A DNA stretch of 64,000 nucleotides from Octopus vulgaris (lineage: Eukaryota): the NCBI GenBank assembly GCA_951406725.2, contig OX597839.1:40672001-40736000 (forward strand), given 5' to 3'. Under the pieces are notes generated by a model, which did not search any database, was not told the DNA's origin, and was given only the letters and a program-made list of their open reading frames with translations. This document shows, one piece after another, positions 3,780 to 56,581 of this stretch; position 1 is the stretch's first letter, and each line of letters begins with the position of its first letter. The translations under genes and the position numbers were made by a program.

Positions 3780-3828
<49 letters not shown>

Positions 3829-4008
3829 GACGGACTTCTTTCAGTTTCCGCCTACCAAATCCACTCACAAGGCTTTGGTGGCCCGAGGCTATCGTAGAAG
3901 ACACTTGGTCAAGGTGTCACACAGTGGGACTGAACCCGGAACCATGTGGTTGGGAAGCAAACTACTTACGACACAGTCACTCCTATGCCTATCTATATAT
4001 ATTTTTAT

Positions 4009-4597: not shown

Positions 4598-4906
4598 TAT
4601 AATCAAAAATAAGCAACAAGAATGAATCCGGTAATTTAGTACAATTGTTTCATACTACAACATTTTATTAAAAGCTGTAAATATTACAGCAGATTTAAGA
4701 TGCTGAGTAATCGGCATCTTAAATCTGCTGTAATATTTACAACTTTTAATAAAATGTTGTAGTATGAAACAATTGTACTAAATTACCGGATTCATCTTGT
4801 TGCTTATTTTTTATTATAATCACCCTGCATATTTTTATGGGTAACACCATACAAAATTCTGGTGCATCTAAATTAAGTGCCATATTCATTTGAATCTAAA
4901 TTGTTG

Positions 4907-9780: not shown

Positions 9781-9835
<55 letters not shown>

Positions 9836-9843
<8 letters not shown>

Positions 9844-10378
9844 GTTGTATACTGTCAATCTAACAAGAACGTGACAGTAGGGGGTACACCACCGTTGTAT
9901 AGCCCTAGGAGGCATCGAACGCCTCCTGACAGCTTCGACACATTTTTCCCTGTGTCCTTATATACCACCGTACAGGTCTCTACGAGAGATTTAGAAATCC
10001 AATATTTCTTATTTTTGATAATCAGTGAATATACTTCACTGAGTTTACATATATACAGATACGAAGTCCAGACAGATATCACCAGCCGACCGGTGTCTGC
10101 TACTCTAGGCCGATGAAGGACAATGATCCTGAAACACGGTGTCCCTAGATGCAGTTCTGGCGGTTGGGGGTGTTTGTCTCCCCTTCGTATATGTATATAA
10201 GGACACAGGGAAAAAATGTGTCGAAGCTGTCAGGAGGCGTTCGATGCCTCCTAGAGCTATACAACGGTGGTGTACCCCCTACTGTCACGTTCTTGTTAGA
10301 TTGACAGTATACAACCATTCTATCGCCCCACCACCGTACAGGTCTCTACGAGAGATTTAGAAATTCAATATTTCTTAT
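9836..10378 (+). mobile_element. Retrozyme/PLE-pLTR-like element: inverted 5' arm plus 366-nt partial tandem
   Basis: 9836-9965 is the reverse complement of 10193-10323; 9965-10012 recurs directly at 10331-10378; hammerhead at 10104; (TA)n on both sides. Confidence 0.8.
10104..10149 (+). ncRNA. Type I hammerhead ribozyme, U4C core variant
   Basis: TCTAGG-CCGATGA-AGGA(CAATGA)TCCT-GAAA-CACGGTG-TC-CCTAGA: perfect 6-bp stem I, 4-bp stem II, near-palindromic stem III, GTC site. Confidence 0.78.
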
Positions 10379-10431
<53 letters not shown>

Positions 10432-11012
10432 TCATATATATATTTATATGTATATGTATATATATATAGATATATACATATATATGTTTATATGTATATA
10501 TATATGTATGTAGGTGTGTCTGTGTTTATCCGTACGCCATCGCTTGATAGCCGATGTTGGTGTGTTTACGTCCCCGTAACTTAGCGGCTCGGCCAAAGAG
10601 CCCTATAGAATAAGTAATAGGCTTACAAAGAATAAGTCATGGAACTGATTTGTTCGACTAAAGGTAGTGCTCCAGGATAGCCGCAGTGAAAGAACATATA
10701 TCTGTATATCTGTGTGTGTGTGTGTGTGTATGTATTCGCATGCATATACTTGTATACTTAGATATTCTCAGGTATATATGTATATATGTAGGTATGTATG
10801 TATGTATGTATGTATGTATGTATGTATGTATGAATGTATGTATGTATGTATGTATGTATGTATGTATGTATGTGTGTGTGTATGTATGTATGTATGTATG
10901 TATGTATGTGTGTATGTATTTATATATGTATGTATGTATGTATGCATGTATGTATGTATGTATGTATGTATGTATGTACGTACGTACGTACGTACGTATG
11001 TATGTCTTTATG

Positions 11013-12000: not shown

Positions 12001-12008
12001 ATAAATTA

Positions 12009-12408
12009 GGTGCGGGATTGGTTGTGTGGTAACTTACTTATCAACCTCTTGGGTTCGGGTTCAGTCCTACTGCGTGGCGTCTTGGCCAAGTATCTTCTAC
12101 CATAGCCTCGAACCGACAAAACCGTTGTGAGAGGATTTGGTAATGTGTGTGTGTGTGTGTATGTATATATATGCGAGTGTGTGTGTGTATATGTTTGTGT
12201 GTCTGTGTTTATCACCCCATCATCGCTTGACAAGCGATGTTGGTGTGTTTAAGTACCCGTAACGTAGCTGTTCGGCAAAAGAGACGGATAGAATAAGTAT
12301 TCGACTTACAAAGAATAAGTCCTCGGCGTCGATTCGTTTTTGACTAAAAGGCTGTCCTCTGGCATCGCCGCAGTCAAATGACTGAAAGAAATAAAAGAAT
12401 AAAAGAAT
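12009..12408 (+). mobile_element. SINE family A, diverged (partial copies at 3826-3989, 10513-10690, 26230-26446)
   Basis: Same head, internal microsatellite and tail motifs. Confidence 0.8.
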
Positions 12409-12510: not shown

Positions 12511-13053
12511 AATTAATGTAGGATAAAATTTTATTCGGGAAAAAATTTTTATCAATGGCCAGCATATCAAAAAATACCTTTAAAGGTTAAATTTATAAAT
12601 AATTTACAAGATAAGTGCAAAATAAAAATTCTAATGCCAAATATGCCGAAACAAAAAATTGTCAATAACCATTATAATTTATGTGTCTCGAAACAAACCG
12701 ATAGAAATCTCTAAAAAATTCGTTATTACCGTATTGGTCCAATTTCGGGGCTAATTCAAAAGAATTTCCCCCTCTTCAGCGGCAAATACGCGAGATATAA
12801 ATGAAATACTTACTCATACCCATGGAAAAAGCAAGCACTAATTCCTGAGCAGATCTAAGTACCCCAAATATATCCAAAATAGAAAAATCTTCGGCACCTG
12901 TCAAGACACGTGTGATTCGAACTAGAAACTTTCAGAGTGACAGAATCCGGAAGTGAACACTATTCAATCTTTAATGGTTATTGACAATGGTTATTGACAA
13001 TTTTTTGTTTCGGCATATTTGGCATTAGAATTTTTATTTTGCCCTTATCTTGT

Positions 13054-19645: not shown

Positions 19646-19835
19646 TATTTTTTATCTAAAAGATTTTACTATTTAAGCAACCAGTAAAGCCTATACTTTT
19701 CAGTTTCAAAACGGCTACTTGAAGCTAGAAACTCATGAGAGAGTAACTCACTGTGAACATTATTATTAAGATTAAAATAAGAATTCATCACCTCAAAAAA
19801 GCCATCTCTACTCATTTTTTTTCAAATATTTATAG

Positions 19836-20321
<486 letters not shown>

Positions 20322-26191: not shown

Positions 26192-26445
26192 CATACACAT
26201 ATATATAAATATATATATACATATATATATGTGTGTGTGTGTGTGTGTGCATGTTTGTACATCCCCACCACCATCGCTTGAAAACCTATGAAACATAGCG
26301 GTTCGGCAAAAGGGACCGATAGAATAAGTACTAGGCTTACAAAGAAGAAGTCCTTGGGTGGATTTGCTCGACTAAAGGCGGCGCTCCAGAATGGCCACAA
26401 TCAAATGACTGAAGCAAGTAAAAGAGTAAAAGAGAGTAGAGTAGA

Positions 26446-26483
<38 letters not shown>

Positions 26484-31061: not shown

Positions 31062-31374
31062 AAGGGTAAAATTAATTAATTAAGAAGTAATTAATAATTT
31101 CACCAAGTAGAATTCGGTATGAAAAAAGGACCATTCCACGGTGAGTTTAAGTAAAACTAATAAAAAGGGTTCAGCAAATGAAAAAAGGACCATTCCACGG
31201 TAAGTTTAAGTAATACTAATAAAAAGGGTTCAGCAACTGAACCCTTTTTATTAGTATTACTTAAACTTACCGTGGAATGGTCCTTTTTTCATACCGAATT
31301 CTACTTGATTTTTGGCTGCTATTTCTAAACTTCGGTGTGTGGTGAAGCAAATCTTTGCTGAACCCTTTTTATTA

Positions 31375-31424: not shown

Positions 31425-31855
31425 TTTATTTAAAAGCGGCAGAAATATAACAAAAGCTGTTACTCAGAGTTTCACGTTTCCGTTCGTCAGACAGTTTTGT
31501 TTAAATAGAACCGAAATAACGATATGATCAAAGCTAGTTAAAGGATACACCTTTAAAAATGGATTTGTTTCATTGGTCCTTTCAATTAATGGTCTTGAGT
31601 ATGCAATGAACAAAATGATCAAAATAAATGAATTCTATATAAATTCATCCTATTATAAAAAATCGAGGAAAACCTTAAATCGAAGAGCGGATTCAAAATA
31701 TATATTGCAAATAACTATATACGAAATATAATTTTCCTCGATTTTTATAAGATGTATTTATATTGAATTCATTTATTTTGTTTGAAAGGACCAATGAAAC
31801 ATATCCATTTTTAAAGTTGTATCCTTTAATTAGTTTTGATTATATCGTTATTTCT
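31423..31855 (-). mobile_element. Hammerhead element with nested inverted arms
   Basis: Arms 31513-31585/31782-31854 and 31620-31672/31732-31780; starts at (TA)n. Confidence 0.65.
31449..31501 (-). ncRNA. Type I hammerhead ribozyme, canonical core
   Basis: Minus strand AACAAAACTGT-CTGACGA-ACG(GAAA)CGT-GAAA-CTCTGAG-TA-ACAGCTTTTGTT: stem II capped by a GNRA loop, GTA site. Confidence 0.82.
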
Positions 31856-32009: not shown

Positions 32010-32260
32010 CACCTGTCTCTTATATTTCTGATTTTTATTTTCCTAAAATTTTCGTTGCGTCTTGCAACCTTTTCAATAGTTTCGCAAGACGCAACGAAAG
32101 TTTTAGGAAAATAAAAATAAGAAATAAGTGGAAATTTTACCGGTGAGTATGTTAAATTATAAGGCACAAAAAGAAAATGACTCTCCCCAAACACAACAGA
32201 ATATGCTTCAACACACGAACTCTCATAAAGAATCTTGCTAACCAAATCCCAAAAAGAAAT
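32010..32260 (+). mobile_element. PLE-like terminal fragment with inverted 5' arm (relative 35828-36113)
   Basis: TTCCTAAAATTTTCGTTGCGTCTTGC inverted as GCAAGACGCAACGAAAGTTTTAGGAA; CCGGTGAGT followed by ATG ACT CTC CCC is shared with 36059-36110. Confidence 0.65.
32043..32079 (-). ncRNA. Hammerhead-like motif with U3-A8 pair
   Basis: Minus strand CTA-TTGAAAA-G-GTTGC(AAGAC)GCAAC-GAAA-AT-TT-TAG; stem III palindrome AAAATTTT. Confidence 0.5.
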
Positions 32261-35025: not shown

Positions 35026-35099
35026 GGCCGGTTAGCTCAGTTGGTTAGAGCGTCGTGCTAATAACGCGAATGTCATGGGTTCGAGCCCCATACTGGCCA
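35026..35099 (+). tRNA. tRNA-Ile, anticodon AAT
   Basis: GGCCGGTTAGCTCAGTTGGTTAGAGCGTCGTGCTAATAACGCGAATGTCATGGGTTCGAGCCCCATACTGGCCA. Acceptor stem GGCCGGT/ACTGGCC, anticodon stem TCGTG/CGCGA around loop CTAATAA, T-stem ATGGG/CCCAT; A and B boxes intact. Confidence 0.95.
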
Positions 35100-36603: not shown

Positions 36604-36874
36604 CACATAAGGGGAGAAATATAATTAATTTAATAAATTTAATAAATTTCACCTAGTAGTTATTTCGGTATGGAAATGACCATATTCGGTAAGGATTATA
36701 TATAATTATAATAAAGGGTTAATTGCAACAAGTTGCTTAAACCACATACCGAAAATATTAGAAATAGCAGCCGTAATGGTAACCTATTTAGCTGCTATTT
36801 CTAATATTTTCGGTATGTGGTTTAAGCAACTTGTTGCAATTATTTATTATAATTATATATGCATATATATACAT

Positions 36875-49224: not shown

Positions 49225-49526
49225 GGTAAGAACGGTAAGATAACAAAAGAAAGAAAGAGACCTCAATATTATGTAAATAGAGGAAATTTATCTATAAAAT
49301 AATATGTTACAATTACTCAATAGTCAAGATAAAACTCTGAGTTTCAGATGCCGAAGTGGAAATCCACAACACCATCTCTTCGGTTATCTGGCTATATAAT
49401 GGTATTTTTTTTTTCATAGCGTTTTTTCAGATGGCCAGATAACCGAAGAGATGGTGTTGTGGATTTCCACTTCGGCATCTGAAACTCAGAGTTTTATCTT
49501 GACTACTAAGTAATTGTAACACATTA
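49225..49526. mobile_element. Fold-back element carrying two inverted hammerheads
   Basis: Arms 49300-49392 and 49434-49526; (TA)n flanks. Confidence 0.78.
49437..49499 (+). ncRNA. Type I hammerhead, U4C variant (inverted copy at 49327-49389)
   Basis: AGATAA-CCGAAGA-GATG(...GTGGATTTCCAC...)CATC-T-GAAA-CTCAGAG-TT-TTATCT. Confidence 0.68.
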
Positions 49527-49573
49527 TTATATATATATATATATAACTTAAAATTGAATAGAAGATCTGAATA

Positions 49574-53449: not shown

Positions 53450-53644
53450 ACTTAAAGTAAGGGCAAAAATTGATAAAACCATATATGGTTATGGACAATA
53501 TGTTCAATTTCGGCATATTTGGCATGAGAAATTTTTTCGTTTGCCCTTATTTATAAGTTGTTTATAATTTTAACCTTTAAAGGTATTTTTTAATATGCTG
53601 GCCATTGATAAAATTTTTTTCGAAAAAATTTTATCCTACATTAA

Positions 53645-54147: not shown

Positions 54148-54513
54148 TTGTATATATGTATATATATATACATACATATATATACATATATATAAAGAGA
54201 GAGAGATACATAGATACATACATATATACATACATACATAGATGGGTATGTGTGTGCTTGTGTGTATGAGAGAGTGAGTGTATATGCTTTCTACGGAGTG
54301 GCCCCAATGGCACTCGAAACTGATGATCTCAACGTTATGGTATTCATAATTACAGCCTGCATAACTATGCTAAGTACTTCCTTGAATAATGTTCTTCTTG
54401 TTTTCATAACTATGAATATATTCATCATTTCAGTTAAGCATAGCGTTAGTAATAGTTGTTGGTTAGAATTCAATATATCCATGCTTTAAAATAAAACGAT
54501 AGGAAAGTACATA

Positions 54514-54935
54514 GGCGCAGGAGTGGCTGTGTGGTAAGTAGCTTGCTAACCAACCACATGGTTCCGGGTTCAGTCACACTGCGTGGCATCTTGGGCAAGT
54601 GTCTTCTGCTATAGTCCCGGGCCGACCAATGCCTTGTGAGTGGATTTGGTAGACGGAAACTGAAAGAAGCCTGTCGTATATATGTATATATATATATATA
54701 TATAAGTGTGTGTGTATATGTTTGTGTGTCTGTCTTTGTCCCCCTAGCATTGCTTGACAACCGATGCTGGTGTGCTTACGTCCCCGTCACTTAGTGGTTC
54801 GGCAAAAGAGACCGATAGAATAAGTACTGGGCTTACAAGGAATAAGTCCCGGAGTTCGATTTGCTCGACTAAAACGCGGTGCTCCAGCATGGCCGCAGTC
54901 AAATGACTGAAACAAGTAAAAGAGTAAAGAGTAAA
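54514..54935 (+). mobile_element. SINE family A (tRNA-like head, internal microsatellite, (AGTAAA)n tail)
   Basis: A-box-like TGGCTGTGTGG, B-box-like GGTTCAGTC, CORE-like TTGGGCAAGT; multiple copies in the window. Confidence 0.88.
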
Positions 54936-55114
54936 TAGAATGTAATTTCATTGAATGTATGTCAAAAGAACAAATGTTACGTAATTACTTTCATTAGCTT
55001 ACAATTATAAGATAATGAATATAAATAAAAAATATAATTAGAAGCTATAAGATGCCGCACGAACACTCACCTTTGAATGCAAGTTTGTTATGGCAGGGGC
55101 AACTGCTACATATA

Positions 55115-56041: not shown

Positions 56042-56249
56042 TTTTACTCTTTAACTTGTTTCAGTCATTTGACTGCGGCCATGCTGGAGTACCGCTTTTA
56101 GTCGAGCAAATCGACCCCGGGACTTTTTCTTTGTAAGCCCAGTACTTATTCTATCGGTCTCTTTTGCCGAACCGCTAAGTGACGGGGACGTAAACACACC
56201 AGCATCGGTTGTCAAGCAATGCTAGGGGGACAAACACAGACACACACAT

Positions 56250-56284
<35 letters not shown>

Positions 56285-56447
56285 CGACAGGCTTCTTTCA
56301 GTTTCCGTCTACCAAATCCACTCGCAAGGCATTGGTCGGCCCGGGGCTATAGCAGAAGACAGTTGCCCAAGATGCCACGCAGTGGGACTGAACCCGGAAC
56401 CATGTGGCTGGTTAGCAAGCTACTTACCACACAGCCACTCCTGCGCC
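56042..56447 (-). mobile_element. SINE family A
   Basis: Reverse complement of 54514-54935. Confidence 0.88.
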
Positions 56448-56581
56448 TATATGGATAAATTTGGTATAACCCCTTAAAGGGGGCATAGGTTGTATATTAA
56501 GTGGGAACGAAATATATGTTAATAAACTCTGGATAATTGTTAGGAGGTGTAGAGATAAATAATAAATAGTAAATAGCAATT

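Follow-up and report, generated by a model that had tools for sequence, protein, structure and literature searches.

Between two (TA)n tracts, the 64,000-nt stretch of DNA analysed here (the window) contains an element at 9836-10379 that is built from a single 366-nt unit, slightly more than one copy of it in direct orientation and part of it in reverse, and the question it raises is what kind of element this is and from what template it was written. CCACCGTACAGG begins at 9965 and again at 10331, and this spacing of 366, reported in an earlier note made from the sequence, is part of a longer match, with 9964-10013 and 10330-10379 identical at 49 of 50 positions and differing only at 9999/10365. 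The inverted copy of an internal segment, given earlier as 130 bp, was also borne out: 9836-9965 is the reverse complement of 10193-10323, with 129 of 131 positions identical. The locus thereby amounts to 1.13 units with a single ribozyme, and self-alignment found no second copy of the element within the window. The near identity of the duplicated parts suggests that the insertion is young, and since the left flank is itself an (AT)n microsatellite, any target-site duplication would be masked. The features of the locus, with the evidence in brackets, are as follows.

9787-9837, no strand: left flank, the (AT)n microsatellite target (sequence)
9836-9965, minus strand: inverted 5'-truncated arm, without tail, head-to-head with the direct copy (alignment)
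9964-9965, no strand: 2 nt (AC) shared where inverted arm and direct copy meet (alignment ends)
9964-10013, plus strand: upstream copy of the 3' tail, 0.13 extra unit (comparison with 10330-10379)
9965-10330, plus strand: one complete unit of 366 nt, permuted with respect to the ribozyme cut, with 45% GC and without a long ORF
10050-10199, plus strand: rod extending hammerhead stem I (helix probabilities, z, family variants)
10104-10149, plus strand: type I hammerhead (descriptor, fold)
10194-10201, plus strand: TATA-like box TATATAAG at the rod base, also in the inverted arm, with a putative promoter role (sequence)
10202-10378, plus strand: branched 3' domain of short hairpins (z -5.18)
10324-10375, plus strand: optional tail of the type found in Penelope-like elements (PLEs), between two inferred reverse-transcription starts (~10323 and ~10375)
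10379-10509, no strand: right flank, a TA-rich microsatellite (sequence)

We consider it probable that the locus is a young insertion of a non-autonomous PLE of the non-LTR retrozyme type, whose repeat unit measures 366 nt. According to the available portions of two reports (10.1101/2021.04.23.441226, PMC3846280), PLE insertions comprise a partial tandem, an adjacent inverted truncated copy and a tail of 30-40 bp on one end, with a bias towards microsatellites; here, too, we find a partial tandem, an inverted truncated copy, a tail on one end only and an AT-rich target. The inverted arm, which the earlier note left unexplained, is a standard feature of PLE insertion. The tail, at ~52 nt, exceeds the length quoted for PLEs, a point against this reading. 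A TATA box has been described in pLTRs (PMC3846280, accessible part); a bacterial promoter scan of the locus gave no match, its model not being applicable to this DNA.

A purified PLE protein is described as nicking both strands of AT-rich DNA and as initiating at two internal sites, which delimit the tail (PMC11167929, accessible text). By analogy, the insertion would have required an RNA holding more than one unit, which may have been a hammerhead-cut, host-ligated circle or else a transcript that stayed uncut, either as a tandem or with terminal redundancy. A PLE reverse transcriptase/GIY-YIG endonuclease acting in trans would bind this RNA, nick both strands of the (TA)n target and begin cDNA synthesis at fixed internal positions of the RNA. 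A first cDNA, started near 10375-10379, would extend for ~415 nt, just over one unit, and include the tail; a second, started at 10323 and lying on the opposite strand, would extend for 130 nt, lack the tail and stop at the rod base; and the two would be joined head-to-head at their 5'-truncated ends via the 2-nt overlap. At 10223, 10229 and 10264 both arms carry the same allele, the alternative to which makes up 35-79% of depth, and this agreement fits one source. At 10255 the direct copy has A, whereas the matching position of the inverted arm keeps the family G. Self-priming on an antisense template has been put forward as another route to head-to-head inversions (PMC3846280, in part); no palindrome was found at the inversion junction of this locus.

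The longer cDNA would need a template of more than one unit. That it was copied once round a circle, as previously proposed, is not compelled, since a tandem or terminally redundant linear transcript would yield the same product. A circular template is plausible, at about half the likelihood we give to the insertion itself, and between a circle and a linear template of more than unit length we see the chances as evenly divided. The circle is the retrozyme model, and circles have been shown for coral, mussel and axolotl (PMC7229834; also PMC7761336; both in the portions available). For the one PLE examined in this respect (PMC11167929), the accessible text reports that ribozyme cutting was not needed for insertion, which counts against the retrozyme-type reading, and that no RNA-seq reads ended at the cut. 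Reads spanning 10143/10144, the predicted cut site, had been suggested as a test for the circle; we rejected them, as this junction is contiguous in the genomic DNA copy and hence not circle-specific.

The element is not an autonomous PLE, an ORF with reverse transcriptase (RT) and GIY-YIG being absent both from it and from the window frames scanned. The longest ATG ORFs of the circularised unit encode 51 aa (plus strand) and 57 aa (minus strand), and the four stop-to-stop frames inside the element gave no Pfam match, in agreement with the earlier statement that there is no ORF. Neither RT nor GIY-YIG was matched among 144 window frames of at least 70 aa, a set restricted to higher-complexity frames, and the lack of an autonomous partner among these frames counts against a PLE insertion.

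Sequences from public runs place the locus in a family. Part of the stretch is contained in 20 of the 24 listed runs, from four coded organisms; exact-pattern scans gave no match in metagenome contigs and none in viral contigs. Four runs were aligned to 9960-10378 at 82% identity, of which X1 and X3 are guessed to be DNA and X12 and X10 to be RNA, none being recorded as RNA. The two DNA-type runs, from two organisms, yielded 2360 and 1746 aligned contigs, and X12 and X10 yielded 108 and 47. Among all these contigs, mostly of ~100 nt and thus too short to reveal one, there was no array of two or more full units. Summed depth, which is not copy number, rises to 1.3 million and 1.1 million, whereas the individual contigs listed have depths of 20-200, and by this excess the family is large. 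At the tail-to-body junction (10010-10016) the summed depth is 35,503 in X1 and 62,469 in X3, and the junction has a length variant of its own (row 10012) in 9 contigs in each DNA run; the 366-nt unit is therefore a feature of the family. This makes unlikely the case named earlier as a refutation, in which all copies would be pLTRs attached to a long PLE ORF. An X3 record running from 10377 to 10014 was rejected as proof of a tandem, since allele differences between the tail copies could account for its placement. Of the X10 contigs, two span 10143/10144 and carry no evidential weight, because uncut transcripts, DNA and circles fit them equally; nor was the lack of X10 cover at 9960-10057 counted as evidence.

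The family also indicates where the copies end. Among the rows listed, the best-supported unlike ends lie behind 10375, in 21, 22 and 4 contigs (agreement 0.48-0.64, AT-rich), with 246 weaker rows beyond those listed and with 10375 only 3 nt from the end of the aligned stretch. When its two places are summed, the tail has 0.40 and 0.54 of the depth at 10310-10323, and X12 contigs leave the element at 10320 and 10323, the latter being the position at which the inverted arm also stops. The ends behind 10375, the drop in depth after 10323 and the end of the inverted arm together suggest two 3' ends, one at ~10375 and a weaker second at ~10320-10323, with an optional tail of ~52 nt between them. 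The proposal that other copies might be differently permuted does not apply to the 3' side, which has a fixed end near 10375, as in PLEs. Depth peaks at 10296-10323, and at 10296-10309 it exceeds the depth of 10016-10029 by factors of 18.8 and 14.7, a gradient that is confounded by divergent subfamilies, contigs below 82% identity not having been aligned; since part of it reflects these subfamilies, it supports 5' truncation without measuring it. The deepest-covered module, 10295-10375, is a candidate site of reverse-transcriptase binding and initiation, and in X3 loose ends before 10301 in 14 contigs point to subfamilies sharing only the 3' module. A single X3 contig, one of five listed joints, connects 10314 directly to 10144, the end that the predicted cut would create, and would fit an RNA whose 5' end is the cut.

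Some contigs show other arrangements. An X3 contig returns from the hammerhead core (10113) to the tail (9977) with 12 other letters between, as a rearranged copy. Loose ends before 10096 and 10166 in X1 outline an apparent subfamily with different sequence in both rod arms beside the ribozyme; judged by eye and from separate contigs, these arms could still pair.

These data bear on whether the locus might be the truncated end of an autonomous PLE, in which reverse transcription ran for 366 nt from the fixed start and then began again there on a second RNA, making the 366-nt period a one-off product and not a unit of the family. Such an event would explain why the repeat junction (10009/10010) coincides with the family 3' end at 10375, why the depth just downstream of the junction matches only 14-17% of the tail depth, and why some contigs differ upstream of 10076 and 10096. 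We nevertheless regard it as distinctly unlikely, given that the junction recurs with its own depth and length variant in both DNA-type runs, that the two arms of the rod covary, that no ORF lies past the hammerhead, and that the hammerhead stems, of 6 bp and 4 bp, are of the size given as canonical for animals and differ from the minimal PLE type (PMC4209133, available part).

In the hammerhead, stem I of 6 bp and stem II of 4 bp with a 6-nt loop are combined with the core CCGATGA (RNA CCGAUGA, the U4C variant of the canonical CTGATGA, a difference absent from the earlier note), with GAAA and with a stem III formed by the near-palindromic ACACGGTGT; the cut is predicted after C10143. The descriptor, which permitted C or T at position 4 and has three matches in the real window, found none in 2000 shuffles of the unit or in 100 block-shuffles of the window. 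With Rfam, no hammerhead reached the gathering score in the window; a search of 9800-10450 with E up to 5 returned 12 chance-level matches and no hammerhead, and no other ribozyme family was found in that interval. All five stem pairs through which stem I had been proposed to extend were located, and together they form one rod (10050-10199) capped by the hammerhead, with a fold of -69.6 kcal/mol (z -7.35; equalled by 0 of 200 shuffles) and helix pair probabilities of 0.96-1.0. In a cut-to-cut monomer, this rod would bring the two ends of the molecule together by pairing. The earlier picture of a rod-like monomer with a hammerhead at its tip thus stands as regards the tip, whereas the rod takes up only 154 of the 366 nt (42%), the other ~210 nt forming branched short hairpins. 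Across the unit 232 of 366 nt are paired, and the fold z is -7.57 on the plus strand and -4.02 on the minus strand.

A viroid-like size, a strong fold, a rod ending in a ribozyme and a U4C core of the kind known among viroid variants (PMC3088659, PMC9608096, both in part) are also what an endogenised viroid-like RNA replicon would show, that is, a circle copied from RNA to RNA and reverse-transcribed at random points. Random permutation, however, predicts flat depth, and the family has a fixed 3' end and a depth that is uneven by 15-19-fold; the minus strand has no hammerhead core, even across the unit junction, and no other Rfam ribozyme; the rod is confined to less than half of the unit; and the inverted arm and the tail are PLE features. 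This origin is therefore very improbable in our view, and the earlier term "viroid-like" was an overstatement, because the ribozyme is found on one strand only, failing the two-polarity test, and there is no sign of RNA-to-RNA copying. The companion term, retrozyme-like, is supported by the high copy, the absence of protein, the conserved fold of the 366-nt unit and the type I hammerhead.

Position 4 of the core (10111) is C in at least 94% of the aligned depth in all four runs, because all C>T places per run (3, 2, 5 and 2) are explained by other listed rows; the check has a C>T threshold of 6% and applies to relatives of at least 82% identity. Decay of a single copy was accordingly rejected as the origin of U4C, the C>T places lying elsewhere. 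In this family, a genomic repeat whose ribozyme is on one strand, U4C seems to be the rule. Ambros and Flores (1998) is reportedly the source cited for the U4C viroid variant. In peach latent mosaic viroid and citrus CtaHVd-LR1, U4C cores still cleave, with activity reduced in one account; there, unlike here, U4C is a minority variant and ribozymes occur on both strands of RNA replicons (PMC3088659, PMC9608096, as far as the available text extends).

In this copy, the core CCG is predicted to pair with the CGG of loop III (probability 0.99), blocking the active fold, which in the nearest-neighbour model costs 5.4 kcal/mol; this predicted misfolding of the ribozyme counts against a retrozyme-type PLE insertion. 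The same model values the lock at 4.7 kcal/mol, and a stem III dimer brings no net gain (+0.1 kcal/mol, a rough sum). A natural allele one G shorter in stem III forms a perfect palindrome. The GG allele accounts for 99.9% and 87% of depth in the DNA-type runs, and the one-G-shorter allele for 65% and 79% in X12 and X10 as compared with 0.1% and 13% in the DNA-type runs, a lead only, with the X12 and X10 figures coming from 6 and 2 contigs of runs whose RNA nature is guessed. A fuller and doubtful reading would be that the fixed U4C, by pairing with the loop III CGG, locks the monomer or circle against self-cutting, that it is released only by dimerisation, by a protein or in the one-G-shorter allele, and that the copies are footprints of a PLE enzyme that read a 366-nt circle from two fixed starts. 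The lock is proposed as a hypothesis, since the fold model omits tertiary contacts. Were it true, it would answer how animal retrozyme circles avoid being cut again, a puzzle stated in the accessible part of PMC7229834, and if both the family-wide U4C and the lock hold, the family would offer a simple natural test case for ribozyme circles staying uncut. No description of a family-wide U4C retrozyme, or of this family, was found in the literature searched, which left out most subscription papers, Repbase, Dfam, key supplements and the work of Lunse et al. on PLE hammerhead variants.

The U4C core and the predicted misfold, together with the 130-bp inverted ends, might also be expected of a DNA-level repeat (foldback, MITE or minisatellite) in which a dead hammerhead is a passenger, and Xenopus dimers were uncut in 8 of 9 tested (10.64898/2026.07.22.740005, available portion). 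Such a repeat does not explain an inverted arm that corresponds to an internal segment and has no tail, nor the variants of the family, which use G-U pairs and two-sided changes and thereby point to selection on the RNA. Among 40 of the 41 rows, 27 listed substitutions fall at paired positions, according to a pair table derived from this copy from which the predicted core-loop helix had been taken out. The pair is kept by the substitution alone in 15 of the 27 (null mean 9.6, P 0.0003), and alone or with a listed partner change in 21 (null mean 10.6, 0/20000); five pairs are changed on both sides (null 0.85, P 0.0002), the two changes being drawn from separate variant rows with no linkage in the same molecule implied. 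Of the six pair-breaking substitutions, four affect isolated pairs or a stem of 3 bp. No substitution in these 40 rows, across the four runs, lies in 10088-10154, which covers the ribozyme, so that its core, stem I and stem II have no variant row. That the variants keep the base pairs suggests RNA-level selection on the structure of the unit, and we consider a purely DNA-level origin very improbable.

Compared with the metazoan non-LTR retrozymes of mussel, coral and axolotl (Cervera and de la Pena 2020, PMC7229834, in the portions available), the retrozyme-type PLE insertion proposed here has a similar unit of a few hundred nt (350-390 bp in mussel), with GC below 50% and no protein, a type I hammerhead of canonical size with a weak near-palindromic stem III, a self-paired fold and a high copy. 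At 366 nt and 45% GC, without coding, the unit lies inside the range of retrozymes (~150-450 bp, GC <50%, no coding). It differs from them in having 1.13 units with one ribozyme instead of a multimer, in its U4C core and in carrying a PLE-type inverted arm and tail, which those portions do not describe.

With endonuclease-positive PLEs (Penelope/Poseidon and Neptune; PMC3846280, PMC11167929, 10.1101/2021.04.23.441226, each in its accessible part), the locus shares the partial tandem, the head-to-head inverted truncated copy, the optional tail, the AT-rich target, the microhomology junction, the fixed internal start and a type I hammerhead upstream of the tail. In contrast to these elements, it has no RT/GIY-YIG ORF, its unit is 366 nt as against ~3 kb, its hammerhead is canonical where theirs is minimal, and there is no palindrome at its inversion junction. 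The 3' end lies 180-232 nt past the cut, as compared with ~85-90 nt for the start in the anole PLE, as given in the available text on that element.

Animal retrozymes have already been argued to be PLE derivatives, and those of vertebrates reported as pLTR relatives (Li, Clavereau, Pollet 2026, 10.64898/2026.07.22.740005, in part; for further related literature, see also PMC6765202 and PMC6962438, in part). The repeats of that study resemble ours in being protein-free and hammerhead-bearing, in their size range, in their many dispersed monomers and in the PLE link; they are mainly from vertebrates and the argument there is one of homology and co-occurrence, as opposed to the insertion anatomy used here, and our locus lacks the two complete units by which 'active' is defined there. 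Our locus would add one invertebrate-type family to the known class of animal retrozymes. It joins, at one place, retrozyme features (small size, canonical hammerhead, self-paired unit) with a full PLE insertion signature, and it is this combination that makes it useful, as both sets of features together support the proposed idea that PLE enzymes move animal retrozymes.

Other features of the window deserve mention. A second hammerhead-like motif found with the descriptor, at 1285-1366 on the plus strand, has a canonical CTGATGA core and stems of 5, 6 and 4 pairs, and the segment that contains it (~1166-1416), unrelated and lying between (TA)n tracts, probably represents the truncated end of a PLE from a different family. 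A third, at ~12727-12785 on the minus strand and 2.4 kb from the element, has a CTGAAGA core, a stem I of 6 bp and a palindromic stem III; nearby, 12513-12567 also matches 53593-53644. At 31104-31307, close to (TA)n and (TAA)n, a pair of 59-nt tandem copies precedes a copy in inverted orientation, and 11 nt are duplicated where the orientation changes, much as in an inverted stump of PLE type. Other palindromes or foldbacks, 100-340 nt long, occur at 4598-4818, 31513-31854, 32023-32126, 36698-36860 and 49289-49537, some of which may be insertions of the same kind. A dispersed SINE-like repeat, with copies 77-97% alike, is found at 3826-3992, 10514-10691, 12007-12383, 19826-20321, 26292-26457, 54511-54939 and 56042-56450, the copies at 54511-54928 and 56043-56450 being mutually inverted; it presumably resembles the tRNA-derived SINEs of octopus and, with the microsatellite load of the window, may point to a genome of octopus type. 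Finally, a tRNA gene lies at 35026-35099 on the plus strand (65.7 bits), with the anticodon AAT read from the alignment.
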